Origin: Nitrospirota bacterium
Lineage (GTDB): Bacteria; NPL-UPA2; JAADIA01
Direction: 5' to 3'
DNA: 64,000 bases
Assembly (NCBI GenBank): GCA_013151555.1
Contig: JAADIA010000079.1
Span: 1,699-65,698 of the forward strand
The stretch's first letter is position 1. Each line of letters opens with the position of its first letter. Positions 10,089 through 49,764 of the stretch are shown here, in pieces. The position numbers and the translations under genes are program-made. A model generated the notes under the pieces. That model made no database searches. It was not told where the DNA came from and saw nothing but the letters and a program-made list of their open reading frames with translations.

Positions 10089-10517
10089 ATGTCTAAAGTC
10101 AAGGATTGCTTAAAAGAGTTGAAATTTGATGATAAGGGCCTGATTCCTGTTGTCATTCAGGAGGTAGAAACCAACGAGGTTCTCATGCTGGCTTATATGA
10201 ATGAAACCTCTCTTTCGGCTACGCTGGAAACGGGAAGGACGCATTTCTGGAGCCGGTCGAGGGGGAAGTTATGGAAAAAAGGAGAGGTTTCCGGTTGCGA
10301 ACAGATCGTTCACGAAATTTTTGTTGATTGCGATGAAGATAGTCTTCTAATCAAGGTCCATCAGAAGGGCGGAGCCTGTCATACCGGTTATAAATCCTGT
10401 TTCTATCGAAAGATTAATGTCAAGCAGGATATGATTGAGATCGTTAGCCGCAAGGTTTTTCATCCTCATGAGAAGTATGGCAAGAAGGAAAAGCAAGAAG
10501 AAAATTTGACAGGATGA
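10089..10517 (+). CDS. hisI: Phosphoribosyl-AMP cyclohydrolase
   Basis: ATG at 10089 preceded by GGAGGAG; GLIPVVIQ...LMLAYMN...[18 protein letters not shown]...[10 protein letters not shown] is canonical HisI. Stop codon lies inside an ACAGGAT repeat arm. Confidence 0.85.
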
Positions 10518-10528
10518 ACAGGATAGAC
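10506..10528. repeat. ACAGGAT-family repeat arm (ttgacaggatgaacaggatagac), single arm overlapping the hisI stop
   Basis: Same 9-mer units as the 12777, 20177 and 46589 loci. Confidence 0.6.
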
Positions 10529-10582
10529 CGGGCTGAATACTGAGCGCTGAATTCTGAATTATCAAAGAGAGGAGGAGATTCC

Positions 10583-11929
10583 ATGAATCCGCAAATTTTT
10601 CGGGAATATGACATTCGGGGGGTGGTTGATAAGGATTTGACTCCGAAAATAGTAGAAACTTTGGGAAAAGCTTTTGGGAGCTATATCCAGGATTTTCAGG
10701 GCAAAGAGATTGTCGTTGCCCGGGATAACCGTTTATCTTCGAAGCTGTACCGGGACGCTCTCATTTCCGGAATAGTTTCTACTGGATGTAGTGTCCTTGA
10801 CATTGGCGAGGTTCCCTCTCCGGTATTCTATTTTTCCTTGATTCATTATGAGAAAGATGGAGGAATGATGATTACTGCCAGCCATAATCCTCCGGAGTTC
10901 AATGGGTTCAAGATTAGTCGTGGCCATAGCAGTATTTATGGGGAGGAGATTCAGAAGTTAAGAAAAATAATCGAATCCGGGAAGTTCCGGGAAGGTAAAG
11001 GACAAATAAGCAGTAAAGATCCCCGGGCGGCTTATCTCAGTTGCCTTAAAGAGAGAGTAAATTTAAAACGAGAACTGAAGGTAGTTGTGGATGCCGGCAA
11101 TGGGACAACTTCCGATTTAGCCCCTTCCTTATTGGAAGAACTGGGTTGCCGGGTAATAAAACTTTACTGTGAGTCGGACGGGAGGTTTCCCAACCATCAT
11201 CCGGATCCGACTATCCCGGATAATTTAAAGGATTTAATTGCTACCGTGCAAAAAGAAAAAGCCGATCTGGGAATAGCTTACGATGGAGACGGGGATAGAA
11301 TTGGAGTAGTTGATGAAAAGGGCAAGATTATCTGGGGCGATAGGTTAATGATAATATTTGCCCGAAAAATCCTTAAAAAGCATCCGGGAGCCAAGGTCGT
11401 TTTTGAGGTCAAATGTTCTCAAAGTTTGATTGAAGAAATTGAGAAAGCCGGAGGTGTTCCTCTGATGTGGAAGACGGGACATTCCCTTATCGAAAGTAAG
11501 ATTCGGGAGGAAGGAGCTCTCCTGGCGGGAGAAATGAGCGGCCATATCTATTTTGCCGATAACTATTTTGGTTACGATGACGCTATCTTTGCTTCCTGCC
11601 GGTTAGTGGAGATTCTCTCCGGGACGGAGAAGAGATTATCTCAGCTTTTAGAAGGGGTCACCGAGTACCATTCTACTCCTGAAATAAGGATAGAGTGCCC
11701 GGATGAAAAGAAGTTTGAAGTGGTGGAGAAGGTCAAAAAATATTTCCGGGAAAAATATGAGATTATCGATATCGATGGGGTAAGAGTCCTCTTTGGAGAT
11801 GGATGGGGATTGGTTCGGGCCTCCAACACGCAGGCGGTTCTCGTTCTCAGGTTTGAAGCGCGAACGGAAAAGAGGATGGAGGAGATAAAGAGTCTGGTGA
11901 TGACCAAGTTAAAGGAAGTCATCGGATAA
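10583..11929 (+). CDS. Phosphomannomutase/phosphoglucomutase (alpha-D-phosphohexomutase)
   Basis: 448 aa; active-site TASHNPPEFNGFKI, metal loop DGDGDR, sugar loop GEMSGH. Confidence 0.8.
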   Translation: MNPQIFREYDIRGVVDKDLTPKIVETLGKAFGSYIQDFQGKEIVVARDNRLSSKLYRDALISGIVSTGCSVLDIGEVPSPVFYFSLIHYEKDGGMMITASHNPPEFNGFKISRGHSSIYGEEIQKLRKIIESGKFREGKGQISSKDPRAAYLSCLKERVNLKRELKVVVDAGNGTTSDLAPSLLEELGCRVIKLYCESDGRFPNHHPDPTIPDNLKDLIATVQKEKADLGIAYDGDGDRIGVVDEKGKIIWGDRLMIIFARKILKKHPGAKVVFEVKCSQSLIEEIEKAGGVPLMWKTGHSLIESKIREEGALLAGEMSGHIYFADNYFGYDDAIFASCRLVEILSGTEKRLSQLLEGVTEYHSTPEIRIECPDEKKFEVVEKVKKYFREKYEIIDIDGVRVLFGDGWGLVRASNTQAVLVLRFEARTEKRMEEIKSLVMTKLKEVIG

Positions 11930-12054
11930 GAAACGCTAAGTTAACAAGGTCTCCGGTTAATAACTCTCTTTTCTAACTAGCCTGGAGCACTTGGTCTTGC
12001 CTTTTTTTAAGGAAGCTGATATAGTTAACAATCCTGGGAGAAACAAAAAGAGAG

Positions 12055-12762
12055 ATGGAAGAGATAAGAGATAGACTAAAGCTGGTTAAAGAGAAAATTA
12101 ACCGGGCCGTGGAAAGTTCCAGGCGAAGCGCCGGGGAGATTGAACTGGTAGTAGTGACCAAGACGGTTGCGGTAGCTCGTATTCGAGAAGCAATCGAGGC
12201 CGGGGTGCGGAATATCGGAGAGAACCGGGTGCAGGAGGCCCTGGCCAAGCATGAGGAGCTTAGTTCTCGTCCTCCCGGAGCGGGTCTTCCCCGATGGCAT
12301 ATGATCGGGCACTTACAGCGGAATAAGGTGGAGAGAGCTTTGAGCATCTTTGACCTTATCCATTCAGTTGACTCCTTATCCTTAGCCGAGGAGATAGATA
12401 AACGGGCTGAGGCTCTGGGAAAAAGAGTGGATATCCTGGTGGAAGTGAATGTATCCGGGGAGGAATCGAAATTCGGCTTAGAGAGGAGTAAAGTAAACGA
12501 GTTTTTAGTGACAATTTCTAAGTTGAAGAATCTCAGAATACAGGGATTAATGACGATGACTCCTTTCACAAACGATCCGGAACAGTCGAGACCTTATTTT
12601 CGTAAGCTCAGGTGTCTTAGCGAGGAGATACAGTCCGGCCGGCTGAATAATATAGAGATGCGGTATCTATCTATGGGGATGAGCCAGGATTTTGAAGTGG
12701 CTATTGAGGAGGGAGCTAATATGGTGCGTATCGGTAGCGCCATCTTTGGTTCACGGTCTTAG
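12055..12762 (+). CDS. yggS: YggS-family pyridoxal phosphate homeostasis protein
   Basis: 235 aa; alanine-racemase-N-like fold signature VTKTV...GENRVQE typical of YggS/PLPBP. Confidence 0.75.
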   Translation: MEEIRDRLKLVKEKINRAVESSRRSAGEIELVVVTKTVAVARIREAIEAGVRNIGENRVQEALAKHEELSSRPPGAGLPRWHMIGHLQRNKVERALSIFDLIHSVDSLSLAEEIDKRAEALGKRVDILVEVNVSGEESKFGLERSKVNEFLVTISKLKNLRIQGLMTMTPFTNDPEQSRPYFRKLRCLSEEIQSGRLNNIEMRYLSMGMSQDFEVAIEEGANMVRIGSAIFGSRS

Positions 12763-12776
12763 AAGATGAGGAAAAT

Positions 12777-12912
12777 TTGACAGGATTAACAGGATAGACA
12801 GGATAAAATTATTACCTGAATAAGCAAATGAAACAAATTAAAATTAAATTATTACAGGTTTGTCTTTTAGTGGCTCTTTAAAAAATCTTGTTAATCCTGT
12901 TTATCCTGTCAA
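12777..12912. repeat. ACAGGAT-family inverted tandem-unit element (3 units - spacer - 3 inverted units)
   Basis: ttgacaggattaacaggatagacaggat at 12777-12804; atcttgttaatcctgtttatcctgtcaa at 12885-12912; spacer itself holds aattattacctg/aattattacagg. Confidence 0.7.
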
Positions 12913-12942
12913 AAGAAGTAAAGTAACTAAGTGAGGTATTTT

Positions 12943-20139: not shown

Positions 20140-20176
20140 CCACAGAGGACGTAGAGAAACAAGACCTGAAACTATT

Positions 20177-20285
20177 CTGACAGGATTTACAGGATGAAAA
20201 CTCGATTGAGTCGACTCTGTTGACAGGATTAAAATTTAAGTATAGAAAAAACAAAAAATCTTGTTAATCCTGTTCATCCCGTCAA
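20177..20285. repeat. ACAGGAT-family inverted tandem-unit element with a central GAGTCGACTC palindrome
   Basis: ctgacaggatttacaggatg at 20177-20196; ttgacaggatt at 20220-20230; atcttgttaatcctgttcatcccgtcaa at 20258-20285. Confidence 0.7.
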
Positions 20286-24659: not shown

Positions 24660-25493
24660 ATGTGGCAGGGTAGAGTAAAAATTTCTGTTAATGAAGAGGT
24701 TGCTCCCGGGTACTTCAGGATGGTTTTAAATGCTCCTCAGGTAGCTGAAGATGCGGAAGCGGGACAATTTATTCATATTCGAGTCAATGATGAGTATGAT
24801 CCTTTACTGCGGCGGCCGCTTAGCATACATAGAATAATTAGTCGAAGGTTAAAGGTTAAAAGTTTAAAGTTGCCGGATATTGAAGTGCTTTATGAGGTCG
24901 TAGGGAAGGGGACGAAGATATTGGCGGGAAAGCGGCCGGGAGAAGATCTGGATATTCTGGGACCGCTGGGCAATGGTTTTAAACTCGGCTGTGTTTCCGG
25001 GACGGTTATCCTGATCGCCGGGGGAATGGGTGTCGCTCCTCTCCTGGCTCTGGCTGAGGAGATAAGGAGAGAGGAAAAGGTTAAGGATACCTACGTTATT
25101 ATTGGGGCGAGAACGAAGGCGCTGGTGTTATGCGAGGATGCTTTCCGGGATTTAGCGGCCAAGGAGGTGCAAGTGGCTACTGATGATGGAAGCAGAGGAT
25201 ACAAAGGATTAGCGACTGACCTTCTGCAAGAGTTGTTTTCAACTTTAAACCTTAAACTTTCAACCACAGTTTACGCCTGTGGTCCGGAAGGAATGCTTCG
25301 GGAGGTAGCTGCCCTTACGGTTGCCAAGGGGGTTCCCTGCCGGATGTCTTTGGAGAACCGAATGGGGTGTGGAGTAGGAGCATGTCTGGGGTGTGTTGTG
25401 AGAGTGAAAAGTTTGCAGTCGGGAGTTGAAAGTTACAAACGTGTATGTAAGGATGGACCTGTCTTTGAAGCCGGGGAGATAATCTGGGAGTGA
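24660..25493 (+). CDS. pyrK: Dihydroorotate dehydrogenase electron-transfer subunit (FAD/[2Fe-2S])
   Basis: LLRRPLSI, GPLGNGF, C-terminal Cys cluster CGVGACLGC. Contains an in-frame inverted pair of GGTTAAAG-family repeat arms (see repeats at 24844 and 25240). Confidence 0.85.
   Translation: MWQGRVKISVNEEVAPGYFRMVLNAPQVAEDAEAGQFIHIRVNDEYDPLLRRPLSIHRIISRRLKVKSLKLPDIEVLYEVVGKGTKILAGKRPGEDLDILGPLGNGFKLGCVSGTVILIAGGMGVAPLLALAEEIRREEKVKDTYVIIGARTKALVLCEDAFRDLAAKEVQVATDDGSRGYKGLATDLLQELFSTLNLKLSTTVYACGPEGMLREVAALTVAKGVPCRMSLENRMGCGVGACLGCVVRVKSLQSGVESYKRVCKDGPVFEAGEIIWE
24844..24872. repeat. GGTTGAAAGTTAAGG-family repeat arm inside pyrK coding sequence (encodes RRLKVKSLKL)
   Basis: gaaggttaaaggttaaaagtttaaagttg. 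Confidence 0.6.
25240..25265. repeat. Inverted GGTTGAAAGTTAAGG-family repeat arm inside pyrK coding sequence (encodes STLNLKLST)
   Basis: caactttaaaccttaaactttcaacc; its reverse complement ggttgaaagtttaaggtttaaagttg matches the arm at 24844. Confidence 0.6.
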
Positions 25494-29130: not shown

Positions 29131-29748
29131 TTGAGCTCTCAAGTAGAGGAGCCCTTGTTTATGCTCAAAGGCAAGGAAATAATTATCGGAGTAACGGGGA
29201 GTATTGCGGCTTATAAATCGGCGGAAATCGTTAGGAGGTTGAAGAATGAAGGAGCCGAAGTGACCGTAATTATGACCGAAAAAGCTACCAAATTTATCAC
29301 TCCTCTCACTTTGGAAACTCTTTCTCGAAACCCGGTTTATTGTTCTCTGTTTTCTGAGGAGCGAGAATGGGACCCTGCTCACATTTCTCTGGCCGGGAGA
29401 GCGGATCTGATTTTGATAGCGCCGGCTACTGCCAATCTCATTGGCAAATTAGCTGCCGGGATAGCTGATGACCTTCTGACAACAACGGTGATGACGGTTA
29501 AGACAATGGTTATTCTTGCTCCGGCTATGAATACCCGGATGTATGAAAATCCTATTCTTCAGGAGAATCTGAACAGACTAAAAAGTTTCGGGTATGAAAT
29601 TATCGAACCCGAATACGGTTTTCTTGCCTGCGGCGAAAAAGGGAAAGGGCGGCTGGCTGATGTTGATACCATTCTTAAAATGGTGGAAGACAATTTTAAC
29701 AGAAGACAGAAGACAGAGAATGGAGAACAGAAAACAGAGAGAATTTGA
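29131..29748 (+). CDS. coaC: Phosphopantothenoylcysteine decarboxylase (flavoprotein)
   Basis: GVTGSIAAYKSAEIVRRL FMN-binding N-terminus; C-terminal tail RRQKTENGEQKTERI is encoded by a GACAGA repeat arm. Confidence 0.8.
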   Translation: MSSQVEEPLFMLKGKEIIIGVTGSIAAYKSAEIVRRLKNEGAEVTVIMTEKATKFITPLTLETLSRNPVYCSLFSEEREWDPAHISLAGRADLILIAPATANLIGKLAAGIADDLLTTTVMTVKTMVILAPAMNTRMYENPILQENLNRLKSFGYEIIEPEYGFLACGEKGKGRLADVDTILKMVEDNFNRRQKTENGEQKTERI

Positions 29749-29785
29749 CGCCTGTCTTCTGGTTTCTGGCAACTGTCCTCTCTGG
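29701..29785. repeat. GACAGA-family inverted tandem-unit element at the coaC/coaB junction
   Basis: agaagacagaagacagagaatggagaacagaaaacagagagaat at 29701-29743; inverted cctgtcttctggtttctggcaactgtcctctctgg at 29751-29785. Confidence 0.7.
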
Positions 29786-29798: not shown

Positions 29799-30503
29799 TT
29801 GAAGAGTAAGAAAGACGGGGTTGTGAGGACAAAGGACCTGGAAGGTAAAAAGGTTCTGGTTACCGCCGGCCCTACCCGGGAACCAATAGATGCAGTCCGC
29901 TTTCTCAGCAATCCTTCTACGGGAAGAATGGGTTTCGCTCTGGCTTCGGCCGCCGAGCGGAGGGGAGCGGAAGTTATTCTCATAAGCGGACCGACGGTTC
30001 TTGTTCCTCCGGAGGGAATAAACTTTATTCGGGTGGGAACGGCTCTGGAGATGTACCAGGCCGTCCTTAGAGAATTGCAAGGGGTAGATATTTTTATAGC
30101 TGCTGCAGCTGTTGCTGATTACCATCCGAAGAAATTTTTTCCGGGTAAGATTAAGAAGCAAGGAAGAAAAAATCTTTTACTCCAACTTCAGCCTAACCCT
30201 GATATTCTCAAGGAAGTGGGCCGGAAGAAAGGAGAGAAAATTCTGATAGGGTTTTCGGCGGAGACTGAGGGCCTGGTAAAGAATGCTTGCCTGAAACTTC
30301 GGGAGAAGAACTTAGACTTTATCGTAGCCAACGATCTGACTCAAGAAGGGTCCGGCTTCGCTTTGGAAACGAACCGGGTTAAAATAATAGATCGAGAAGG
30401 AAGGATAGAAAACCTTCCCTTGATGTCTAAAGCGAAAGTGGCGGAACATATTCTTGACCGGGTGGGGGAGGTAATGAAAAGTCGGAAAGCTCTGGGAGCT
30501 TGA
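29799..30503 (+). CDS. coaB: Phosphopantothenate-cysteine ligase
   Basis: GKKVLVTAGPTREPIDAVRFLSNPSTGRMGFALA matches the CoaB domain of Dfp; encoded separately from coaC. Confidence 0.8.
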   Translation: MKSKKDGVVRTKDLEGKKVLVTAGPTREPIDAVRFLSNPSTGRMGFALASAAERRGAEVILISGPTVLVPPEGINFIRVGTALEMYQAVLRELQGVDIFIAAAAVADYHPKKFFPGKIKKQGRKNLLLQLQPNPDILKEVGRKKGEKILIGFSAETEGLVKNACLKLREKNLDFIVANDLTQEGSGFALETNRVKIIDREGRIENLPLMSKAKVAEHILDRVGEVMKSRKALGA

Positions 30504-36763: not shown

Positions 36764-38530
36764 ATGATGAATTCTAAAGATAAGCATAAGGCTGATTCAA
36801 AAGATAACCTGGAAACTCTGAGGCATAGTGCCGCTCATATCCTGGCCCAGGCAGTGAAGGAGCTTTATCCGGAAACCAAGTTGGGTATTGGCCCTGCCAT
36901 TGCCGATGGTTTCTATTATGATTTTGAGAGAAAAACTCCTTTTACTCTTGAAGATTTGGCAAAGATTGAAGAGAGGATGCAGAGAATTGTGAAGGCTGCC
37001 CTTCCTTTTCTGAAAAGTGTTCTTTCTAAGCAAGATGCTCTGGAAATATTTTCTGAATTGGAGGAGCCATATAAGTTAGAACTTCTGGAAGATCTGGAGA
37101 ATGATGAAGTAACTATCTACCGGCAGGGAAATTTTACTGACCTCTGTAGGGGGCCGCATCTGGCGAATACCGGAGAGCTGAAATCTTTCAAGCTCCTTAG
37201 CATAGCCGGAGCCTACTGGCGGGGTAGCGAAAAGAATCCTATGCTCCAGCGAATATACGGGACGGCCTTTCCCGGGGAAGTGGAGTTAGCAGAATATCTG
37301 CAGAATCTTGAAGAAGCTAAGAAGAGGGACCATCGCAGGTTAGGGAAAGAATTGGATCTCTTTAGCCTGGAGGAGGATGTTGGTCCCGGCTTGGTCCTCT
37401 GGCACCCTCGCGGGGCGATGTTGCGGAAGGTCATCGAGGACTTCTGGCGGGATGAGCATTTGAAACGGGGGTACCAACTTGTCTATACTCCTCATATCGC
37501 CGGAGAGAATTTGTGGAAGGTAAGTGGACATCTTGACTATTTCAGGGAAATGATGTATCCTTCTATGAGAATGGACGAGCGGAACTATCTTCTCAAACCG
37601 ATGAATTGTCCCTTTCATATAAGAATTTATAAGCAGAAAGTTCGTAGTTATCGAGACCTCCCCATTCGTTATGCTGAGTTAGGAACAGTCTACCGCTATG
37701 AACGTTCCGGGGTCCTGCATGGGTTGTTGAGGGTGCGAGGTTTTACTCAAGATGATGCCCATATTTTTTGTACTCCGGAGCAATTGTCCAAAGAAATTCT
37801 GAGCATTATCGATTTGATCCAGTTCATGTTGGAGGCTTTTGGTTATAAGGAGTTTCAGGTCGAGTTGAGTGTTCGCCATCCGGATAGAAGCGGTGATTAT
37901 CTGGGAGATGATGAAGGCTGGGCTCGGGCGGAGGCAGCTTTAGTTGAATCTCTGGACAAGAGGAATCTCTCCTATACGGTAGGGGAAGGAGAAGCAACCT
38001 TCTATGGTCCTAAGATCGATATCAAGCTGGTTGATGCTCTGGGAAGAGGTTGGCAAGGTCCAACAATCCAGGTAGATTTCAACCTTCCGGGACGTCTTAA
38101 TATTACTTATGTGGGAGATGATGGAAAGAAACATCCGGTGATGATGCTCCATCGAACCGTACTGGGAACGATGGAACGGTTTGTCGGAGGTTTGATAGAG
38201 CATTATGTCGGAGCATTTCCTTCCTGGCTGGCTCCTCTTCAGATCAGGGTGGTGACGATCAACCAGGGGCAGGAAGCTTATGCAAAGAAGGTTCTGCAGG
38301 AACTGCAGGAAAAAGGATTGCGGGCTGATCTGGATGCGGGAAAGGAAACGATTAGTTATAAGATTGGGAAGGCTGAACGGGAAAAAATTCCTTATATTTT
38401 AGTAGCGGGAGATAGGGAAGTAGAAGCGGGCACTGTTTCGGTAAGAAAGAGAAAGGATCGTCATCAAAAAGTAATGAAGGTTGAGGAGTTTATTGACAGG
38501 ATTCAGGAAGAAATAAAAAACCGTGAATAG
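36764..38530 (+). CDS. thrS: Threonyl-tRNA synthetase (lacking the N-terminal TGS domain)
   Basis: 588 aa; begins at the editing-domain motif RHSAAHILAQA; class II core and anticodon-binding domain present. Confidence 0.9.
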   Translation: MMNSKDKHKADSKDNLETLRHSAAHILAQAVKELYPETKLGIGPAIADGFYYDFERKTPFTLEDLAKIEERMQRIVKAALPFLKSVLSKQDALEIFSELEEPYKLELLEDLENDEVTIYRQGNFTDLCRGPHLANTGELKSFKLLSIAGAYWRGSEKNPMLQRIYGTAFPGEVELAEYLQNLEEAKKRDHRRLGKELDLFSLEEDVGPGLVLWHPRGAMLRKVIEDFWRDEHLKRGYQLVYTPHIAGENLWKVSGHLDYFREMMYPSMRMDERNYLLKPMNCPFHIRIYKQKVRSYRDLPIRYAELGTVYRYERSGVLHGLLRVRGFTQDDAHIFCTPEQLSKEILSIIDLIQFMLEAFGYKEFQVELSVRHPDRSGDYLGDDEGWARAEAALVESLDKRNLSYTVGEGEATFYGPKIDIKLVDALGRGWQGPTIQVDFNLPGRLNITYVGDDGKKHPVMMLHRTVLGTMERFVGGLIEHYVGAFPSWLAPLQIRVVTINQGQEAYAKKVLQELQEKGLRADLDAGKETISYKIGKAEREKIPYILVAGDREVEAGTVSVRKRKDRHQKVMKVEEFIDRIQEEIKNRE

Positions 38531-38588
38531 GATTAAGAATTAAGAATTAAGAAGAAAAACTTAATACTTACAACTTACAACTTAATTC
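38531..38588. repeat. Inverted tandem-unit element (unit GAATTAAG) immediately 3' of thrS
   Basis: gattaagaattaagaattaagaag then cttaatacttacaacttacaacttaattc. Confidence 0.55.
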
Positions 38589-38631
38589 TGTTTTTTAGAG
38601 GAGGTGACGACTAATAGCTAAAGAAATTAGG

Positions 38632-39126
38632 ATGAATGCCCGGATTAAAGCAGTGGAAGTAAGAGTTATTGAACATGATGGTAGTCAGTCAGGCATAATG
38701 CCGGTGAAGGAAGCTCTAAAGTTGGCTGAAGAGAAAGGCCTGGATTTAGTTGAGGTTGCTCCTCAGGCAAGTCCACCGGTATGCCGTGTTATGGATTACG
38801 GCAAGTATAGGTATGAACAGCGCAAGCGGACTAAGGAAGCCAAGAAAAAGCAGAAGATTACGGAAATCAAAGAGATCAAGTTGCGTCCGAAGATTGAAGA
38901 GCATGACTATCAGGTAAAGCTGCGGCAGGCGCAAAGGTTCTTGAAAAGCGGAGATAAGACAAAAGTTACTATCGTGTTTAGGGGCAGGGAAATGGCTCAT
39001 CTGGATATCGGGAAGAAGCTTTTAGACCGATTCGCCGGCGACATGACCGATTTGGGGGTAGTGGAAGTGGCTGCCAGAATGGAAGGTAGGAGTATGGGGA
39101 TGATCCTTGCTCCTCATAAGCAATAG
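38632..39126 (+). CDS. infC: Translation initiation factor IF-3
   Basis: IKAVEVRVIEHDGSQSGIM...PPVCRVMDYGKY canonical IF3; an in-frame AUA at 38614 with ideal SD spacing may be the true (non-canonical) start. Confidence 0.85.
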   Translation: MNARIKAVEVRVIEHDGSQSGIMPVKEALKLAEEKGLDLVEVAPQASPPVCRVMDYGKYRYEQRKRTKEAKKKQKITEIKEIKLRPKIEEHDYQVKLRQAQRFLKSGDKTKVTIVFRGREMAHLDIGKKLLDRFAGDMTDLGVVEVAARMEGRSMGMILAPHKQ

Positions 39127-39187
39127 AAGATAGAAAATAGAAGACAGGGAGTAGAGGACCGAAGAGTTTGACTTCTATCATCTGTGG
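39125..39187. repeat. GACAGA/AGATAGA-like inverted element 3' of infC (arm overlaps infC stop)
   Basis: agaagatagaaaatagaagacaggg at 39125-39149; inverted cttctatcatctgtgg at 39172-39187. Confidence 0.5.
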
Positions 39188-39201: not shown

Positions 39202-39399
39202 GTGCCTAAGTTGAAAACTAAGCGAGGAGCAGCCAAAAGGTTCAAGGTGACCAAATCGGGAAGGATTGGAAGAAAAAAAGCTTGTGCCAGTCATATTCTG
39301 ACGAAGAAGTCCTCTAAACGTAAACGGGGACTAAGGCAGGCAGACACTGTTAGCAAAGCGGATAGAAAAGCAATTAAACTTCTGCTACCTTATGCTTGA
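39202..39399 (+). CDS. rpmI: 50S ribosomal protein L35
   Basis: GTG 39202 with AAGGAG 7 nt upstream gives [22 protein letters not shown]. Confidence 0.85.
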
Positions 39400-39406
39400 A
39401 ACAGAT

Positions 39407-39577
39407 GGTTGAAAGTTAAGGTTGTAAAGTCTAAAGTAAAAAAACTTTTGGAAGAAGATATTTGTAAGTTTGAGATATAAGGTTTTTAAGTATAAGCCCC
39501 GGGTTGTCTAAGATTTAGGCAAGGTTTTTATTGTTTTCTTGCTTTTAACTTTCGACCTTCAATTTTAAACTATCAAC
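39407..39577. repeat. GGTTGAAAGTTAAGG-family inverted element between rpmI and rplT
   Basis: ggttgaaagttaaggttgtaaagtctaaagt at 39407-39437; inverted cttttaactttcgaccttcaattttaaactatcaac at 39542-39577. Confidence 0.6.
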
Positions 39578-39602
39578 TGTCTTTTGAGAAGGAGAATAAA
39601 AA

Positions 39603-39974
39603 ATGCCTCGAGTTAAGAGTAGTGTTACCTCCAGAAGACGGCACAAAAAATTTTTAAAGCAAGCCAAAGGTTACTGGGGAGGGAGAAGTAGGCTTTATCG
39701 GACAGCGCGGGAAGCAGTAGAGAGAAGTTGGAGCTATGCTTTTCGAGACAGAAAGGTAAAGAAGAGAGATTTTAGAGGTTTATGGATTTCCCGTATCAAT
39801 GCCGCGGCCCGTATCCATAACCTTAGTTATAGCAAGTTCATATATGGTCTTAATAAAGCTAATGTCGGCTTGAACAGGAAAGTACTGGCCGACCTGGCGG
39901 TGAGGGAACCCACTACTTTCAAAGAACTGGCCAAGGTAGCTAAAGATGGTTTAAAGTTAAAAACTGAAGGTTGA
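39603..39974 (+). CDS. rplT: 50S ribosomal protein L20
   Basis: [35 protein letters not shown] canonical L20; last residues (GLKLKTEG) and the stop are encoded by a repeat arm. Confidence 0.9.
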
Positions 39975-40000
39975 AATCAAATACTTTAAACCTTAAACTG
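39948..40000. repeat. GGTTGAAAGTTAAGG-family inverted element overlapping the rplT 3' end
   Basis: ggtttaaagttaaaaactgaaggttgaaatc at 39948-39978; inverted ctttaaaccttaaactg at 39984-40000. Confidence 0.55.
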
Positions 40001-40008
40001 AGGTAATC

Positions 40009-41621: not shown

Positions 41622-43127
41622 ATGACCGTAGGGAGCGGACTTGAAATGTCTCCCCTCCGCCAGCGATATTTCATCATAATTAGTTATGTGGGACTCCTGA
41701 TCTTAGGATTAGGAGGGATTCTCCTTATTCCTTTAGTCAGCCTTTTCTTTTCTCCGTCGGACATAAAGTACCTTAATAGCTTTCTCATCCCTTCCTTAGC
41801 TGCTATCGTCGGGGGATTTTTTCTCTGGAGGGGGTTCCGTTCGCGAGTAGAGGTTCCTCCTTTAACTGCTCCCGATGCAGCTCTCATCGTTACCTTTGTC
41901 TGGATAGCAGCCGTTATCCTGGGTGCGCTTCCCTTTATCCTCTCGCAGATATTAAGCCCTCTGGATGCTATCTTCGAGTCTATGAGCGGTTGGACAACTA
42001 CGGGTTTGACCATGGTTAATCCTGATAAGATTCCTTCCCTCTTCCTTTTCTGGAGGAGCCTCATGCAGTTTGTGGGAGGAGCGGGTCTAGCCGTAATTAT
42101 GCTCTCGGCCATCGTTGGCTCTTTAGGTCCCGGGGTCTATGAAGCAGAAGCCCGAAGTGACCATTTAGTTCCCCATGTGATGCATACGGCAAGAATGATC
42201 ATTAAAATCTATTTAGCTTATTATATCGTTGGAGTTGGCCTCTATTTTCTGGCGGGGATGAACTTTTTTGACTCTCTCAATCAGGCTATGTCCGGGTTAG
42301 CTACCGGCGGTTTTTCCACTCACTCGGAAAACATTGCTTACTGGAACAATCTCTCTATAGAGGCAGTAAGTCTGCTTCTCATGCTCTTGGGAACGACAAA
42401 TTTTGCTACTCACCATGTTCTCCTTTCCAGCCGGGGAAGGAAGGGTTTCAGAGATACGGAACTCAAACTAATGAGTTGGTTAATCATCGTAGTTACTCCC
42501 CTGATTGCCTTCAGTCTGTTCAAAACCATATTAGGAAACTTAGGAGATAGCTTCCGGAAAGGGTTGTTCCAGGTAGTCTCCGCCCTTTCGGGGACCGGTT
42601 ATTCAACGACTACTCTCAACAACTGGAGCGAATTTTCTCTTTTTCTCCTGATTATCTTGATGATTGTTGAGGGAGGAACCGGTTCTACTGCGGGGGGAAT
42701 AAAACTTTACCGGGCCGCTATTATTATTAAATCCATCTGGTGGTGGATCAAGAAACAGTTCTATCCTCCCTCTGTGGTTATACAAAGAGCTATCTGGAGA
42801 CGGGGGGAAAGACTGGAAGTTCAAGATAAGCATATTCAAGCGGTGACGGGTTTCATCGGACTTTATCTTCTTACCTATCTTGTAGGAGTGCTCATTTTTT
42901 TAGGGAGCGGTTTCTCCCTCCGTCAGTCCCTATTCGAGTTTGCTTCAGCTATAGGGACGGTAGGATTATCGTTGGGGATTACCCGCCCGGATATGCCTGT
43001 TACCGCCAAGGTGGCGGAGATCTTCGGGATGTGGTTGGGAAGACTGGAATTTATAGCTATCTTCCATGCTTTTATCCGAATTGGACGAGACCTGAAAGTA
43101 GGAAGAAATAGAAGAGGAAAAGAATGA
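41622..43127 (+). CDS. TrkH/KtrB-family K+ transporter membrane subunit
   Basis: 501 aa polytopic protein with repeated selectivity-filter-like GTTGLT / GLATGG / GGTGST / GLS motifs. Confidence 0.7.
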   Translation: MTVGSGLEMSPLRQRYFIIISYVGLLILGLGGILLIPLVSLFFSPSDIKYLNSFLIPSLAAIVGGFFLWRGFRSRVEVPPLTAPDAALIVTFVWIAAVILGALPFILSQILSPLDAIFESMSGWTTTGLTMVNPDKIPSLFLFWRSLMQFVGGAGLAVIMLSAIVGSLGPGVYEAEARSDHLVPHVMHTARMIIKIYLAYYIVGVGLYFLAGMNFFDSLNQAMSGLATGGFSTHSENIAYWNNLSIEAVSLLLMLLGTTNFATHHVLLSSRGRKGFRDTELKLMSWLIIVVTPLIAFSLFKTILGNLGDSFRKGLFQVVSALSGTGYSTTTLNNWSEFSLFLLIILMIVEGGTGSTAGGIKLYRAAIIIKSIWWWIKKQFYPPSVVIQRAIWRRGERLEVQDKHIQAVTGFIGLYLLTYLVGVLIFLGSGFSLRQSLFEFASAIGTVGLSLGITRPDMPVTAKVAEIFGMWLGRLEFIAIFHAFIRIGRDLKVGRNRRGKE

Positions 43128-44713
43128 ACGGTCCTAAGGAAGAACTCCGGACGGTAGTGGAACGGCTTAATCCTCAAACGAGATGCTTGCTGACGAGGAT
43201 GAAAGCCGGCGATGCTTATCTCCCTTCGCAGTTGCAAGAGCTGCTGGGGCAGGGAACTAAAGCCAGGGCTGTGGGGTCTGTGGGATGGTTGATTGCTAAT
43301 GGTTTAGCTGAGGAGACGGGTGAGGAGGACTCTAAAAGATATGTGTCGTTAGCCGATAAAGGACAGGCTTTTCAGGAAAAAGGAATTCCTGAAGGACGGA
43401 TAGTTAAGCTTTTGAAAGAAAAAGATAAGTTGACTATTCAAGAACTTGGAGAGAAGTTAGCTTTACCTAAAGAGGAATTGAATCCTATTCTTGGAACCAT
43501 GAAGAAGGAAAAAGTTATCTCATTTGAAAGCGGGGGGCGGGTGGCTTTGGGAGAAGAGGTAGCTATTAGGAAAGCAACCGAAAGGTACGGTAAGGTTAAT
43601 AATCTTTTAGACCGGGTGAAATCTGAAACAAGAGTGGATTTGCATGATATGCCTGAAGATGAAGAAGAAATTATTAAAGAGATGAGTCGGAAACGAGGTA
43701 AGGGTAAAGCTATCTTCCGCATAGTTCGAGCAGTAGAGATGAGATATAAACTAACCCCGAGAGGGAAAGAAGCTCAAGCCATATGTGGAGATATTAGGGA
43801 AGGCGAGGAGATAGGTTCTCTTACTCCCGAGATTCTGGAGAAAGGATTATGGCGGAACCGAACGTTCCGGAAATATGATATAGGCACCCGACCTCCCAAA
43901 TGGACTTACGGAAAGAAACATCCCTATGGACTCTTTCTGGATTTCGTGAGGAGAAAATTGGTAGCTATGGGTTTCGAAGAGATGAGAGGGCGGATGGTGG
44001 AGACTGAGTTTTGGAACAACGATGCCCTTTTTATGCCCCAGGACCATCCGGCCCGGGAAATACACGACGTCTATTTTGTTAAAGAACCTAAATACTCGCA
44101 AGAATTGCCTGAAGACTTAGTTGAGAAAGTAGCCAAGACCCATGAAACCGGCTGGAAGACCGGTTCTACCGGTTGGGGATATAAATTTGATAAAGAGAGA
44201 ACATCCCGTTTCGTTCTCAGGAGCCAGGGTACAGCTAACTCTGTTCGGATGTTGGCATCTCAACCCAAAATTCCGGGCAAATATTTTGCTATTGCCCGCT
44301 GCTTCCGTTACGATCAGGTAGATGCCACTCATGCTTCGGACTTTAATCAGATAGAGGGGATAGTTCTTTCCCGGGAGATGAATTTCCGGCACCTCTTGGG
44401 ACTTCTGAAACTTTTCGCTCTGGAGATAGCCGGCTCCAGTGAGGTTAGGTTTGTCCCTTCCTATTTCCCTTTTACGGAACCTTCCGTGGAGATCCAGTTC
44501 AAGCACAAAGAGCTTGGCTGGATGGAATTAGGAGGAGCAGGAATCTTCCGGAAAGAGGTTACTATTCCTTTAGGGATAGAAGTTCCGGTTATTGCCTGGG
44601 GGCTGGGTCTGGATAGGATGGCTATGGTAGCTCTCTCCCTTGACGACATCAGGGACCTCTTTACCTCTGACCTGGGGAAAGTGCAGGAGATGAAATTTAA
44701 GCAAAATATATAA
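43124..44713 (+). CDS. pheS: Phenylalanyl-tRNA synthetase alpha subunit, archaeal/eukaryotic type (long N-terminal winged-helix extension)
   Basis: 529 aa, against about 340 for bacterial-type PheS; class II motifs 2 and 3 in the C-terminal half (FRYDQVDATHASDFNQIEG, GWGLGLDRMAMV). Confidence 0.8.
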   Translation: MNGPKEELRTVVERLNPQTRCLLTRMKAGDAYLPSQLQELLGQGTKARAVGSVGWLIANGLAEETGEEDSKRYVSLADKGQAFQEKGIPEGRIVKLLKEKDKLTIQELGEKLALPKEELNPILGTMKKEKVISFESGGRVALGEEVAIRKATERYGKVNNLLDRVKSETRVDLHDMPEDEEEIIKEMSRKRGKGKAIFRIVRAVEMRYKLTPRGKEAQAICGDIREGEEIGSLTPEILEKGLWRNRTFRKYDIGTRPPKWTYGKKHPYGLFLDFVRRKLVAMGFEEMRGRMVETEFWNNDALFMPQDHPAREIHDVYFVKEPKYSQELPEDLVEKVAKTHETGWKTGSTGWGYKFDKERTSRFVLRSQGTANSVRMLASQPKIPGKYFAIARCFRYDQVDATHASDFNQIEGIVLSREMNFRHLLGLLKLFALEIAGSSEVRFVPSYFPFTEPSVEIQFKHKELGWMELGGAGIFRKEVTIPLGIEVPVIAWGLGLDRMAMVALSLDDIRDLFTSDLGKVQEMKFKQNI

Positions 44714-44738
44714 GTTTGCTACCTCCTTCGGAAGTTAA

Positions 44739-44824
44739 GACTATAGACTATAGACCATAGACTAAACGAGGGGAAAAGGGATGGTGAAAAGTCTAAAGTC
44801 TGATGTCTATGGTCTATTGTCTGA
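44739..44824. repeat. Inverted tandem-unit element (unit CTATAGA) between pheS and pheT
   Basis: gactatagactatagaccatagactaaa at 44739-44766; inverted agtctaaagtctgatgtctatggtctattgtctga at 44790-44824. Confidence 0.6.
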
Positions 44825-44849
44825 ATTGAGTTCTTGAAAAGAGGTAAGA

Positions 44850-46508
44850 ATGCCAACTATTGAAATAAGAAAAACGGATTTTGATAAGTTCCTGAAGCCC
44901 ATAATAGAAGAACAGGGAAGAGGACGGGAAGAGACTCTTTCTCGCATTAAGGGAGAGATAAAAGGCGAGGATAACGATTGCTATAAGATAGAAATAGCCG
45001 ATACCAACAGGCCGGATCTCTTCACTGTTGAAGGTATTGCCAGAGAACTTCTGGGGATTTTCAAAGAGGAAAAGTTTAAGGATGATTTTCTGAATGAAAG
45101 TCCGAAATATAAGATAGAGGTCCTGGAATCCGTGCGGGAGGTAAGACCTTTTGTAGGAGCTCTGGTTGTCAGGAACTTAACTGTTGATGAAGATACTCTG
45201 CATTCTTTAATAAGCATCCAGGAAAAACTGGGTGAGACCCTGGGGAAAAGGAGAAAGAGGGTTGCCATTGGTGTTTATGAAGCCGGTTCCATCGAATTCC
45301 CGGTACGATACGGAGCTTTTGATCCTCAATCTTATAAGTTTGTTCCCCTGGAGTTCTCCGAAGAGATGACTTTGGATGAGGTTTTGAGGAAACATCCTAA
45401 AGGTATTGAATATGGGCATTTGTTGAAAGGTTGCCAAGGTTATCCTCTTCTCCTCGATGCTAACCGGAGAGTTCTTTCCCTCCCTCCCATCGTCAATAGC
45501 CGGGAAATGGGAGAGGTAAGGCCGGGAGCGAACCATCTCTTCGTGGAAGCAACAGGGACAGACCAGAAGGCGGTTATTCTGGCCTTAAATATTATCTCTT
45601 CCGCTCTCTCTCTCCGGGGAGGGACCATAGAAAGATGTGAGACGGTTTATCCCTACGCGACTCCCCTGGGAGAAAATCAGGTGACTCCCAGGCAAATGAA
45701 CAAGGCGTTGAGGGTAGATATGGAGGAGCTGAAACAGCTACTGGGTATCGATATTAGTCGGCAAGAGGCAGCTGATTGTCTAAGGCGATTAGGATATGAA
45801 ATCCAGGGGCAAGGAGAGAAATTCCAGGCCCTCGCCCCCTATTACCGTAGCGATGGTATGCATGAACACGATATAATAGAAGATATAGCTATAGTGAAAG
45901 GTTATGAGAACTTCTCTCCTCTACCTTTAAGCGATTTCACTATAGGAGGGTTATCCAGGGAACAGGAGATAGTGGATAAAGTAAGGGAGATTCTCGTCGG
46001 GATGGGATTTCAGGAGATAATATCTAACGCCTTGGTGAATCGGAGGGAACTCTCTCAGCGGATGAGATGTGAGACCGAGGCCATCGAAGTAGATAACGTG
46101 ATGACTGAGACCTACTCTGTATTGAGAAGTTGGCTTATTCCCTGCCTGCTCAAAGTGGAGAGGGAAAGTTCTCAGGTGGAATATCCTCATAAGGTCTTTG
46201 AAGTGGGTGAGGTGGTTGTCAAGGAAAATGGGCCCAGGGAAGAGATAAGACTGGCCGTTCTCATCTCGAGCGGAGAATTCGGTTTCACCGATATCCACCG
46301 GATATTGGAAAGCCTGATGGAGGAATTATCCTATCCTTATCATCTGAAAGAAGCTTGTCATAGTTCATTTATAGAAGGCCGTTTCGGTGAAATAGAGAGT
46401 GGACATAAGTCTGTGGGAATCATTGGCGAAGTACATCCGGAGGTCTTATCTAACTGGGCTGTCAAAATGCCTGTTTCCGCATTTGAGCTTAGGATTTACC
46501 CCTATTAA
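44850..46508 (+). CDS. pheT: Phenylalanyl-tRNA synthetase beta subunit, archaeal/eukaryotic type (short form)
   Basis: 552 aa, against about 800 for bacterial PheT; B3/B4 and B5 regions recognisable; no tRNA-binding N-terminal OB domain. Confidence 0.75.
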   Translation: MPTIEIRKTDFDKFLKPIIEEQGRGREETLSRIKGEIKGEDNDCYKIEIADTNRPDLFTVEGIARELLGIFKEEKFKDDFLNESPKYKIEVLESVREVRPFVGALVVRNLTVDEDTLHSLISIQEKLGETLGKRRKRVAIGVYEAGSIEFPVRYGAFDPQSYKFVPLEFSEEMTLDEVLRKHPKGIEYGHLLKGCQGYPLLLDANRRVLSLPPIVNSREMGEVRPGANHLFVEATGTDQKAVILALNIISSALSLRGGTIERCETVYPYATPLGENQVTPRQMNKALRVDMEELKQLLGIDISRQEAADCLRRLGYEIQGQGEKFQALAPYYRSDGMHEHDIIEDIAIVKGYENFSPLPLSDFTIGGLSREQEIVDKVREILVGMGFQEIISNALVNRRELSQRMRCETEAIEVDNVMTETYSVLRSWLIPCLLKVERESSQVEYPHKVFEVGEVVVKENGPREEIRLAVLISSGEFGFTDIHRILESLMEELSYPYHLKEACHSSFIEGRFGEIESGHKSVGIIGEVHPEVLSNWAVKMPVSAFELRIYPY

Positions 46509-46588
46509 AAGGCGGGATTGCCCAGATTAGGACAAAGATTTCGCTCTGGTGATTGGCTATTAGTTTAATGCTAAGGAAAATCAAAAAC

Positions 46589-46739
46589 GGACAGGATTAA
46601 CAGGATGTACAGGATAATTTTCTTAAAGAATTTTAGTTGGGGAAACTTTACAAAACTTTTTGAATTTTGTAAAATCAGCTTTTATCCTTTGATTTAATTA
46701 AAAGAATAAAAATCCGGTAAATCCAGTAAATCCTGTCAA
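46589..46739. repeat. ACAGGAT-family inverted tandem-unit element 3' of pheT
   Basis: ggacaggattaacaggatgtacaggat at 46589-46615; inverted atccggtaaatccagtaaatcctgtcaa at 46712-46739; spacer contains tttacaaaa/ttttgtaaa palindrome. Confidence 0.7.
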
Positions 46740-46783
46740 TTTTAGAGTTGCCGCTGTAGACGGCCTAAGTTTGGAGAGAAGTC

Positions 46784-46960
46784 ATGCCGGAAGATAGCTT
46801 GAGTATTCTGGAAGAACGGGTGGGGAAGCTTGTTGAACTTACCATCAAATTGAAGGAAGAAAAGGAGAGATGGGAGAAGGAAAAAGCTGTCCTCAAATTG
46901 AAAGTAGAAGAGATATCAAACCAGGTGGAAAAGGTTATCGGGGAAGAAAATGAAAGATAA
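46784..46960 (+). CDS. Small coiled-coil protein (ZapB-like), not in the supplied ORF track
   Basis: 58-aa ORF MPEDSLSILEERVGKLVELTIKLKEEKERWEKEKAVLKLKVEEISNQVEKVIGEENER overlapping the zapA start by 11 nt. Confidence 0.4.
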   Translation: MPEDSLSILEERVGKLVELTIKLKEEKERWEKEKAVLKLKVEEISNQVEKVIGEENER

Positions 46961-48782: not shown

Positions 48783-48862
48783 GATAAACAAAACATTTGA
48801 AACATCTTGGTATTTTCGGGGAAATGGTAACTGTAAATTTTAATAGCATAGGGAGGAAGGAG

Positions 48863-49198
48863 ATGAAATTGAGAAAGAGTTTTCTTTGTTTGGTCGTGGG
48901 AGGCTTGGCCGCAGTTATATTTGCAACCTTGGCACCGGAAGTTCAGGCAGCTAATCCTTTTAATAAAGTGGGACGAGGGTTGGGAAATATAGTCATTGCT
49001 CCTGTGGAGATACCTGTGTCCATGGTCAGCGAGGCTAAGAAGAATCCCTTATTGGGTTTGGTAATAGGACCGATAATCGGAGCAGTCAATTGTGTGACCA
49101 GGGCCACTGCCGGAATCGTTGAGCTGGTTACTTTTCCAGTCCCTCCTTACGATCAACCCCTTTATGAGAAAGATCTTGGGGAGACCGTCTGGGAGTGA
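48863..49198 (+). CDS. Small secreted hypothetical protein (signal peptide; resembles small exosortase-associated TIGR04073-like proteins)
   Basis: ATG 48863 after GGGAGGAAGGAG; signal peptide MKLRKSFLCLVVGGLAAVIFATLAPEVQA; motifs NKVGRGLGNIVIAPVEIP, TRATAGIVELVTFPVP. Confidence 0.4.
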   Translation: MKLRKSFLCLVVGGLAAVIFATLAPEVQAANPFNKVGRGLGNIVIAPVEIPVSMVSEAKKNPLLGLVIGPIIGAVNCVTRATAGIVELVTFPVPPYDQPLYEKDLGETVWE

Positions 49199-49227
49199 AT
49201 CTGCCTCGCCCTAAAGGGCAAGGCATC

Positions 49228-49350
49228 ATTGTAAATTGAAGATTGGAAATTGGAAATTTTAAAATGGAAGAGAAGAAATGAGATTCAATCTTTTTTGATT
49301 TATTTCAATAAGTTTAAAATTTACAATTCTCAATTTACAATTCGAGCGAA
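49228..49350. repeat. Inverted tandem-unit element (unit ATTGGAA / TTGTAAAT) upstream of rpsP
   Basis: attgtaaattgaagattggaaattggaaatttt at 49228-49260; inverted aaaatttacaattctcaatttacaattc at 49323-49350. Confidence 0.6.
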
Positions 49351-49377
49351 GCGAGTTAACTCAGAGGAGGTGAATCA

Positions 49378-49665
49378 GTGGCTGTAGTTATTAGATTGAA
49401 AAGAATGGGAGCGAAGAAAAGACCTTTTTATCGATTGATCGTAGCTGATTCCCGTATGCCCCGGGATGGCCGGTTTATCGAGACTATTGGTCTATATAAT
49501 CCTTTAGAAAATCCTTCTAAGATTTCTGTTAGTCAGGAAAAAGCTCTTTATTGGCTGAAACAGGGAGCGAAACCATCTCCGACAGCAAAACAGATTCTGA
49601 GGAAGAGCGGAGTTTGGGAGAAGTTTAAACCACAGAAAGTACAGAAGACAGAGAATAAAGAATAG
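49378..49665 (+). CDS. rpsP: 30S ribosomal protein S16
   Basis: GTG start; [43 protein letters not shown] canonical; C-terminal tail QKTENKE encoded by repeat arm. Confidence 0.9.
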
Positions 49666-49764
49666 AAGACAGAGAACAGATGACAGAAATAATCTTATAT
49701 TGAACGGCTGTTTTTATACGTCTGTCTCTTGATTTCTGACATCTGATGTCTGTTTCCTCTGTGG
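49664..49764. repeat. GACAGA-family inverted tandem-unit element 3' of rpsP
   Basis: agaagacagagaacagatgacagaaat at 49664-49690; inverted cgtctgtctcttgatttctgacatctgatgtctgtttcctctgtgg at 49719-49764. Confidence 0.7.

Follow-up and report, generated by a model that had tools for sequence, protein, structure and literature searches.

The DNA analysed here (hereafter the window) is a 64-kb stretch of contig JAADIA010000079.1 from a Nitrospirota bacterium, a gene-dense piece of chromosome whose proteins are NOX97641-NOX97679, whose G+C content is 44-45% and whose GC skew is strongly positive up to ~54.6 kb; its closest named relatives are entered as 'candidate division NPL-UPA2 bacterium'. Between its genes lie dispersed hairpin elements with arms built from short tandem units, and at hisI, coaC, infC, rplT and rpsP such an element runs into the gene's 3' end or shares its stop codon (Table 1). 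We compared the window with loci of relatives (L087 and L090 from NCBI, L088 from Logan, L089 and P0122 from JGI, and the GTDB representative L007 among them), all of this DNA coming from short-read metagenome assemblies. A scan of a genome collection with ribosomal protein L20 returned L007 as the sole close relative; the 79 other loci belong to distant phyla and were left out. An earlier note on this DNA had placed the stop codons of all five genes inside or at the repeats, and we confirmed each of the five on the sequence. It had also proposed that the repeat arms provide both the stops and the C-terminal tails of these genes, which is what we find for hisI, coaC, rplT and rpsP; the arm at infC provides the stop only.

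Nearly all spacers longer than ~100 nt in the window contain a long imperfect hairpin, both arms of which are tandem arrays of 7-9-nt units, dispersed mostly as inverted pairs. More than ten unit families coexist in the 64 kb, including ACAGGAT, GAAGACA/GACAGA, GGCACAAA, AATCCCAA, CACGGAA, AGACTAT, AATTGGA, AATTAAG, GGTTGAAAG, CGCAGAT and CGCCGAG. The inverted arms are 17-58 nt long and 74-94% complementary, and as paired ends they resemble the terminal inverted repeats of a miniature inverted-repeat transposable element (MITE); Tandem Repeats Finder (TRF) reports 22 head-to-tail arrays with a period of 6-10 nt in the window, or 63 when the relatives are included. When five ACAGGAT copies are aligned, homology is limited to the arms and does not extend over a whole element of uniform size. 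The ACAGGAT word itself occurs 23 times, 15 of them in intergenic DNA, which makes up only 11% of the window. Without exception the 3' arms stop 12-36 nt short of the next start, sparing the ribosome-binding site. Many hairpins also have an outer clamp in common, (A)ACCACAGAG on the 5' side (ends at 2440, 16308, 20140 and 49628) and CTCTGTGGTWA(A/G)G on the 3' side directly before the ribosome-binding site (ends at 4085, 16398, 29778, 39178 and 49752); the 5' clamp of the rpsP hairpin falls on the KPQ codons, which are conserved.

Table 1. Genes and repeat features discussed in the text (window coordinates unless a locus is named).
Feature	Position	Strand	Remarks
hisI (phosphoribosyl-AMP cyclohydrolase)	10089-10517	+	NCBIfam NF000768, Pfam PF01502; core ends ...EKYGKK, tail EKQEENLTG, then stop
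ACAGGAT-family 5' arm GAAAATTTGACAGGATGAACAGGATAGAC	10500-10528	+	encodes the last hisI codons and TGA 10515-10517
Reference full ACAGGAT hairpin	12776-12913	+	14 nt 3' of the yggS stop; inverted repeat, TRF, alignment
Other ACAGGAT hairpins	20176-20285 and 46588-46752		
coaC (phosphopantothenoylcysteine decarboxylase)	29161-29748	+	TIGR00521 positions 1-186, TIGR02113; tail NRRQKTENGEQKTERI, then stop
GAAGACA-family 5' arm	29698-29745	+	entirely within the coaC coding sequence; TRF, inverted repeat, fold
3' arm of the coaC hairpin CCTGTCTTCTGGTTTCTGGCAACTGTCCTCTCTGG	29751-29785	+	adjoins AGGAG, the ribosome-binding site of coaB, and its TTG start
coaB	29799-30503	+	TIGR00521 positions 178-391; TTG start
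AATTAAG-family hairpin	38525-38593	+	stem begins in the thrS stop TAG 38528-38530; followed by a run of six T
infC (IF3)	38632-39126	+	TIGR00168 spans residues 1-164 of 164
ATAGAAG/GACAG 5' arm	39123-39165	+	begins 1 nt before the infC TAG; 3' partner GACTTCTATCATCTGTGG at 39170-39187
rpmI	39202-39399	+	TIGR00001; TGA 39397-39399 at the first bases of the downstream arm
GGTTGAAAG-family 5' arm	39396-39440	+	begins 1 nt before the rpmI TGA; 3' arm 39545-39580; inverted repeat
rplT (L20)	39603-39974	+	TIGR01032 residues 1-114 of 123; core ...AKD, tail GLKLKTEG, then stop
Small hairpin over rplT tail and stop	39945-40003	+	GGTTTAAAGT at 39948-39957 pairs with ACTTTAAACC at 39983-39992
rpsP (S16)	49378-49665	+	TIGR00002 residues 3-80 of 95; core ...GVWEKFKPQ, tail KVQKTENKE, then stop
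GAAGACA-family 5' arm	49628-49690	+	spans the rpsP tail, TAG 49663-49665 and 25 nt beyond; fold z = -2.6
3' arm of the rpsP hairpin	49719-49764	+	ends in CTCTGTGG, 19 nt before the trmD start
ACAGGAT hairpins with a GxxExxY gene in the loop	L107 428-1030; L117 372-819; L138 8685-9132		

The hisI stop lies inside GACAGGATGAACAGGAT, within an arm that is near-identical to the one at 12771-12800; the 3' partner is lacking in this genome, and a complete ACAGGAT hairpin is kept in the relative L090. The match to the HisI family model ends at residue 131 of 151, and relatives have the sequence up to ...EKYGKK in common and then diverge, continuing with EKQEENLTG in the window, with NEKREENLTGLTR in a protein 85% identical, or with nothing at all in one 94% identical (one HisI form, P0245, is 142 aa long). 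The spacer between hisI and pgm exists in three states: an ACAGGAT array (window and L090), an AATGACA array that begins inside the hisI TGA (L089, with a HisI 94% identical), and no array (L005).

The final 16 codons of coaC form an array with a 7-nt period (TRF 29698-29738, 5.9 copies), and the TGA at 29746-29748 lies at the hairpin apex. The family model match ends at residue 187 of 205; relatives have ...DTILKMVEDVL in common, followed by a different tail in each, and the window's tail is unique among homologues 70-85% identical. It is worth noting that coaC and coaB are separate open reading frames (ORFs) throughout the clade, yet for both the best-scoring model is that of fused coaBC. 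We ruled out that a fused coaBC was recently split by the element: many members of the clade have a separate coaC of ~180-195 aa, and in two hairpin-free relatives coaC and coaB share 29 and 56 nt in different frames (L001 3922-5143; L003 6001-7237). The overlap in L001 contains an A7 run.

The last 7-9 codons of rpsP and its TAG lie in a 7-nt array (TRF 49641-49688, 6.9 copies), as the earlier note had said, though the range it gave (49664-49690) misses the QKTENKE codons, which occupy 49642-49662 just upstream. After the common core ...GVWEKFKPQ, S16 continues with KVQKTENKE in the window, KIQKTENREQKTEDRKQKTEKN in a relative 87% identical and KVRKTEDGEQKTEHR in one 88% identical; VEREKN, VEKA and GGQREKD are found at this place in others, and Firmicutes proteins end at KFKPAQ. 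A GAAGACA array lies 3' of rpsP in three genomes (the window, L087 and L088), and the frame closes at a different unit in each, at TAG in AATAGAA, TGA in CAGATGA and TGA in AAATTGA, giving tails of 9, 15 and 22 residues. The whole array is translated in L087, where almost no 3' arm is present.

The rplT stop (TGA 39972-39974) lies inside GGTTTAAAGTTAAAAACTGAAGGTTGAAATC (from 39948), and the last eight codons together with the stop inside GGTTTAAAGTTAAAAACTGAAGGTTGA. The segment GATGGTTTAAAGTTAA (39945-39960) matches the arm between rpmI and rplT (39404-39419) at 15 of 16 positions, with GATGGTTKAAAGTTAA in common. L20 ends in AKDS in the 80%-identical protein of L007, and in GLKLKAEG in P0122, which falls in one 90%-identity cluster with the window protein and differs from it at two residues. 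The infC gene gains no residues, the IF3 model reaching the last one; only its TAG (39124-39126) is common to gene and array, in the first unit of 3.1 ATAGAAG copies (TRF 39123-39144), and the L007 orthologue ends ...ILAPNK. Upstream, thrS has no added tail either, its model reaching residue 583 of 588; with its TAG in a hairpin stem it is, like rpmI, a further case beyond the five genes of the earlier note. The same gene cluster in L007 has its infC-rpmI and rpmI-rplT spacers and the region 3' of rplT occupied, from stop to ribosome-binding site, by GCTAAACT/GCTAAATT arrays (5262-5626 and 5973-6021); these are direct-only arrays of 8-nt units, up to 11 of them, without an inverted partner, and the rplT TAA lies inside one.

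Several observations connect the tails to the arrays rather than to the proteins that carry them. We compared the last 45 nt of each gene with 2533 internal coding windows, and exact 11-12-mers in common with non-adjacent intergenic arrays set apart hisI (empirical p ~0.0008), coaC (p ~0.001-0.003) and, less strongly, rpsP (p ~0.04); rplT and infC did not pass this test. The tail KTENGEQKTE of CoaC in the window and the tail KTEDGEQKTE of S16 in a relative are almost alike, and QKTEN, supplied by a GAAGACA-family array, appears in both proteins, which indicates that one family of DNA array has been translated in two unrelated proteins. The DNA of the tails also has a 7-nt periodicity, which is not what selection at the protein level would give. 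Aligning the C-termini with orthologues 80-94% identical gives common cores and different tails, and no tail was found conserved in taxa free of the repeats. The earlier note's proposal that the 3' ends of these genes have been remodelled by repeats is supported by family models that end before the tails, by the divergence of orthologous tails, by the periodicity and by the peptide found twice.

A TRF census (period 6-10 nt) over the window and eight loci of relatives covers 131.7 kb and 148 genes and is 88% coding. Among its 63 arrays, 34 are wholly intergenic, 9 overlap a stop, 5 lie within the last 50 nt of a coding sequence (CDS), 1 overlaps a start, 1 lies within the first 50 nt and 13 are in CDS interiors; with 10 arrays straddling a gene end in addition to the wholly intergenic ones, the intergenic bias is strong. 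Gene ends are affected at the 3' side in 14 cases versus 2 at the 5' side, the array density in the last 50 nt of genes being nearly that of spacers and ~15 times that of gene interiors. The elements crowd the 5' side of spacers. That repeat arms act in this way 'routinely', as had been claimed, applies to ~7 of the 18 elements in the window, which touch gene ends; the other 11 begin 7-83 nt after the preceding stop and leave the proteins intact (one follows tRNA-Val). Where arrays start 12-30 nt after the stop, the family models reach the last residues of the protein.

The ACAGGAT arm occurs across phyla. It is present as GACAGGATNAACAGGATNNACAGGAT in at least 120 metagenome stretches with contig G+C of 0.34-0.68 (loci L091-L170 and L211-L250), in 38 IMG/VR viral stretches, in plasmid DNA of Ca. 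Thiodictyon syntrophicum (Gammaproteobacteria), where the surroundings have 66% G+C, and as nested copies in plasmid DNA of Spirosoma oryzicola (Bacteroidota); a literature search with the arm sequence returned no relevant paper. Among the matches listed, 47 copies of metagenome or viral origin have paired arms, the loops are unrelated while the arms are conserved (loop 3-553 nt, median 38), and 29 of 115 frames (25%) of at least 100 codons that enter an arm stop inside it, with 45 more stopping no more than 30 nt before. The stops inside fall into classes at -2/-1 (T-TAG-ACAGG, T-TGA-CAGG), at +7/+8 (GGA-TGA-AC, GAT-TAA-CAGG) and at +17 and beyond, hisI of the window belonging to the +7 class. 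These discrete classes reflect stop triplets built into the arm and no chosen insertion point. The flanks, TTTT[A/G]-arm...arm-[T/C]AAAA, co-vary in the manner of a continued palindrome (TG...CA) and not of direct repeats.

In three ACAGGAT copies among the matches listed, the arms surround an ORF, 123-136 aa long, with matches to TIGR04256 (GxxExxY) and PF13366 (PDDEXK_3), and two of these three ORFs read their own tail and stop from the 3' arm (...NFIL and ...ILSCKSC, each followed by the stop). We also compared the surroundings of the GxxExxY gene in four of six plasmid records that contain one (L252-L254 included): CACGGAT arms flank it in a Treponema plasmid, a CGCGGAT x3 hairpin lies just downstream of it in a Gemmatirosa plasmid, inverted GGGATT/AATCCC arrays stand on both sides at some distance in a Persicobacter plasmid, and in a plasmid of a Fusobacteria isolate the flanking repeats are direct, not inverted. 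Nothing was confirmed in a viral scan for GxxExxY relatives. The GxxExxY/PF13366 ORF is the only one found in association with the arms, no search having been aimed at a transposase with matching ends. Among the matches listed, 616 arrays of short period lie in the 707 kb of ACAGGAT-bearing metagenome contigs; most have a period of 7, 8 or 9, and the window's unit families CGCAGAT and CACAGATT are represented.

What the sequences show is that arrays extend over stops and code for tails, that these tails are not alike in closely related orthologues, and that ribosome-binding sites are left intact. We consider it probable that this is explained by arrays spilling over from the spacers and remodelling the C-termini next to them. 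The order of events and the mode of spread would be as follows. Dispersed hairpin elements would take up the sequence that is free of constraint, from the last selected codon to the next ribosome-binding site, with fast turnover of the arrays by slippage and conversion between copies and, for the ACAGGAT family, probably also mobility or horizontal transfer. An element might insert in the last codons of a gene, or an array spread over them, so that the old stop is lost or bypassed and translation enters the arm. The units, rich in A, G and T, carry TAA, TAG or TGA, and the frame would close at the first array-borne stop, within a few codons because the unit period is not a multiple of three. 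The outcome would be a lineage-specific, array-encoded tail with an array-borne stop, and purifying selection would keep only those events that fall in tolerant C-termini.

Several points weigh against this explanation. We recovered no clean pair of empty and filled sites with insertion boundaries or target duplications, so that insertion itself is something we infer, and short-read assembly may have collapsed or under-counted the units of an array, which would also affect the exact length of a tail. The fold z-scores of the elements are modest (-1.0 to -2.6), and neither the window nor the loci of close relatives contain a GxxExxY gene. An ungapped pairing score between the last 30 nt of the CDS and the downstream spacer was no higher over 35 genes than in internal controls (8.1 vs 7.9, P=0.33); this test is too crude, most genes simply not being invaded. 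The density of stop triplets in 5' arms equals that expected from composition (0.075 vs 0.070), and the number of reading frames closed by 5' arms is slightly above expectation (2.11 vs 1.71). We therefore dropped the idea of a 'stop-trap', the closing of frames looking like a by-product and not clearly selected. Finally, neutral spill-over does not easily explain the in-frame arrays of pyrK, which lie at fixed protein positions in all relatives, with different units and constant protein length. These 7-nt-period arrays are inside the CDS (24660-25493) at 24845-24872 and 25237-25265, with counterparts in L003 (2004-2027, 2163-2194), L005 (3794-3826, 3972-4004) and L001 (257-289, 423-454); the two are 85% complementary over 26-33 nt and 367 nt apart in the window, 145 nt in L005.

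The alternative that survives best, and one we still hold unlikely, is that the hairpins are functional RNA (a terminator, 3'-end stabiliser, RNase III or other processing site, or coupling spacer) selected near stops, with the tails as by-products. The elements do lie between co-directional genes and reach from stop to ribosome-binding site, the outer stem bases co-vary in metagenome copies, and the thrS hairpin is followed by TTTTTT. A consensus terminator scan found no excess of intrinsic terminators over shuffles in the window and flagged none of the five sites (the loops are tens of nt long, and only thrS has T6), and another 3'-end signal may therefore be needed. However, spacers in L007 are filled by arrays in direct orientation only, rpsP of L087 and hisI of the window retain the 5' array without a 3' arm, and the runs bordering ACAGGAT elements, of T before and of A after, stand the other way round than in a terminator. 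When sense and antisense folding were compared as a G-U test, the sense strand was the more stable in 14 of 19 elements, yet 50 of 60 coding controls behaved alike; we set the comparison aside as uninformative because the strand is G-rich. No Rfam family matches the elements, Rfam 15 giving only three tRNAs in the window.

The earlier note had also raised a target-site preference, which we take as insertion at, or nucleation from, the stop codon itself and judge quite improbable. Some arrays do start very near a stop (infC -1, rpmI -1, hisI of L089 -3, rplT of L007 -2), nine ORFs among the matches listed end at -2/-1 of metagenome ACAGGAT arms, and 53% of first arrays begin no more than 12 nt past the stop. 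Measured from the first base of the stop to the start of the first array (n=30), however, offsets range from -48 to beyond +100 with no sharp peak: 7 lie more than 3 nt inside the CDS, 3 within 3 nt either side, 6 at +4 to +15, 6 at +16 to +40 and 8 further away. The three within 3 nt compare with 1.5 expected under a uniform null (P=0.18), which is no excess and does not support nucleation precisely at stops. The stop classes of the ACAGGAT arm coincide with TAG, TGA and TAA of the arm consensus, marking where an incoming frame must close; target-site duplications were not seen, and the arm flanks co-vary as a palindrome.

Two further alternatives can be dealt with briefly. That the tails are Lys/Glu/Gln-rich low-complexity ends whose purine-rich codons merely resemble repeats is very hard to sustain: the strand is indeed purine-rich with strong GC skew, and at K=9 the words shared with intergenic DNA put 12 of 51 tails above the 95th percentile, suggesting a general composition effect, but this reading is already contradicted by a period of 7 nt and not 3 nt, by exact words in common with distant spacers, by arrays that run on past the stop into the spacer, by identical peptides (QKTEN and KTE[DN]GEQKTE) in unrelated proteins, and by tails absent or different in close orthologues. 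Least credible of all are chimeric assembly joins caused by repeats at gene ends, since tandem arrays collapse easily in short-read metagenomes but the same architecture recurs at the same genes in the independent assemblies L087, L088, L090, L089, L007 and P0122.

Beyond spill-over within this lineage, the ACAGGAT results and the remodelled gene ends allow a joint reading that we put forward tentatively, as possible though doubtful: the elements may represent a class of mobile hairpins, spread across phyla and so far undescribed, that rewrites C-termini and has an autonomous form with a GxxExxY gene of the PD-(D/E)XK group in its loop. In such a class the arms would consist of 7-9-nt units in tandem, ACAGGAT, CGCGGAT, CACGGAT and GGGATT being examples of their cores; it would offer stops in all frames, settle at 3' ends and continually rewrite C-termini, even of ribosomal proteins. 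The relationship between the GxxExxY gene and the arms might then be analogous to that between repetitive extragenic palindromic (REP) sequences and REP-associated tyrosine transposases (RAYTs). If the class is real, the finding gains in interest. It could assign a role open to testing to a protein family that is widespread but of unknown function, and could explain the many short-period arrays in environmental genomes.

Repeats that supply gene ends are known elsewhere, both as MITEs and as heptamer arrays, and the closest precedents are the QMITEs of Coxiella burnetii and the TAACTGA arrays of Beggiatoaceae; the NPL-UPA2 genome paper makes no mention of repeats. QMITE1 and QMITE2 overlap the 3' ends of ubiB, pntAA, mutT, nagZ, ruvB and further genes, to which they contribute residues or only a stop, and strain-to-strain indels decide whether an element is translated, as in EnhC (PMC5896051). 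Like the elements described here they are dispersed hairpin repeats, mostly intergenic, that overlap gene 3' ends, by 1-50 bp (PMC5896051). However, QMITEs are full-length homologous copies with terminal inverted and direct repeats, whereas here only the arms are conserved around unrelated loops, and each arm is in turn built of 7-9-nt units in tandem, with many families side by side. The TAACTGA arrays, 13 of which overlap the stop of the upstream gene, close all three frames (PMC4679880). They and the cyanobacterial short tandemly repeated repetitive (STRR) sequences resemble our arrays in their tandem 7-nt units and overwhelmingly intergenic location, as well as in a patchy distribution across phyla (theirs covers Chromatiaceae, Bacteroidetes and Cyanobacteria) (PMC4679880). 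Both consist of one unit in direct repeats, mostly just upstream of starts and essentially never inverted (PMC4679880), in contrast to the many families, usually inverted hairpin pairs and crowding toward the upstream stop seen here. A single dominant unit in direct repeats does not describe the window, although L007 has direct-only arrays.

Palindromes of the REP type and their bacterial interspersed mosaic elements (BIMEs), with RAYTs and in the form of REPINs, are likewise short, intergenic and of high copy number between convergent or co-directional genes, and a RAYT gene flanked by cognate hairpins has its counterpart in the three ACAGGAT hairpins that enclose a GxxExxY gene. The arms described here lack a GTAG head and are tandem arrays, and the enclosed ORFs are TIGR04256/PF13366 members, predicted nucleases by family, in place of a Y1 transposase. 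Rickettsia palindromic elements (RPEs) resemble the in-frame arrays of pyrK in placing palindromes within essential proteins without destroying them, but are in-frame insertions of 100-150 bp that add a peptide segment (PMC10969869); here the C-terminus is replaced or extended, with a new stop, in the five genes, and pyrK (position C) shows no change in length. The tandem repeats of Borgs similarly evolve fast and create new low-complexity protein segments, with in-gene units that are multiples of three and of local origin (PMC9879509), as against dispersed, hairpin-paired families of 7-9 nt. What sets the present elements apart is that their arms are tandem arrays, that many families coexist, that only the arms are conserved and that a PD-(D/E)XK ORF stands where a transposase would be expected. 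As a class they have neither the whole-length homology of MITEs nor the features of REP/RAYT systems, and share those of heptamer arrays in part.

Some further features of the window lie outside these comparisons. A strong CGCCGAG-type hairpin at 51644-51731 (26 nt, 88% complementary) seems, as the one such case, to overlap a start, that of yraN (ORF 51688-52122); the start is probably mis-called, the real one lying near 51769 and leaving the hairpin intergenic (YraN models match from residue 27, and the L087 orthologue has 117 aa). The motif TAAYARCTCTCTTTTYTA occurs in three copies (0.07 expected; 9096-9113, 11958-11975 and 52968-52985) without an Rfam match, the first two forming a hairpin loop (stem type GCTCCGG...CCGGGAGC) just 3' of a gene end. 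The phenylalanyl-tRNA synthetase subunits (43124-46508) score best against archaeal-type models (PRK04172, pheT_arch), above the bacterial ones. Sigma-70-like promoter matches in positions 1-55000 exceeded shuffles in three scans (35 vs 26.8, 35 vs 23.9 and 29 vs 18.5), and several fall in hairpin loops or arms, for example at 46647-46675, upstream of a small ORF (46784-46960) that precedes zapA. At ~54600 gene orientation changes from + to - and the GC skew, strongly positive over the first 54 kb, falls to about zero, without reversal.

If spill-over of arrays is the right explanation, the C-termini of core proteins (S16, L20, HisI and CoaC) would have been rewritten over short evolutionary time by non-coding repeats, and the window, from a candidate lineage that has barely been studied, would offer a natural case of protein C-termini arising de novo. 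For annotation, array-encoded tails and stops will differ between near-identical strains and may be mis-sized in metagenome-assembled genomes (MAGs) built from short reads.

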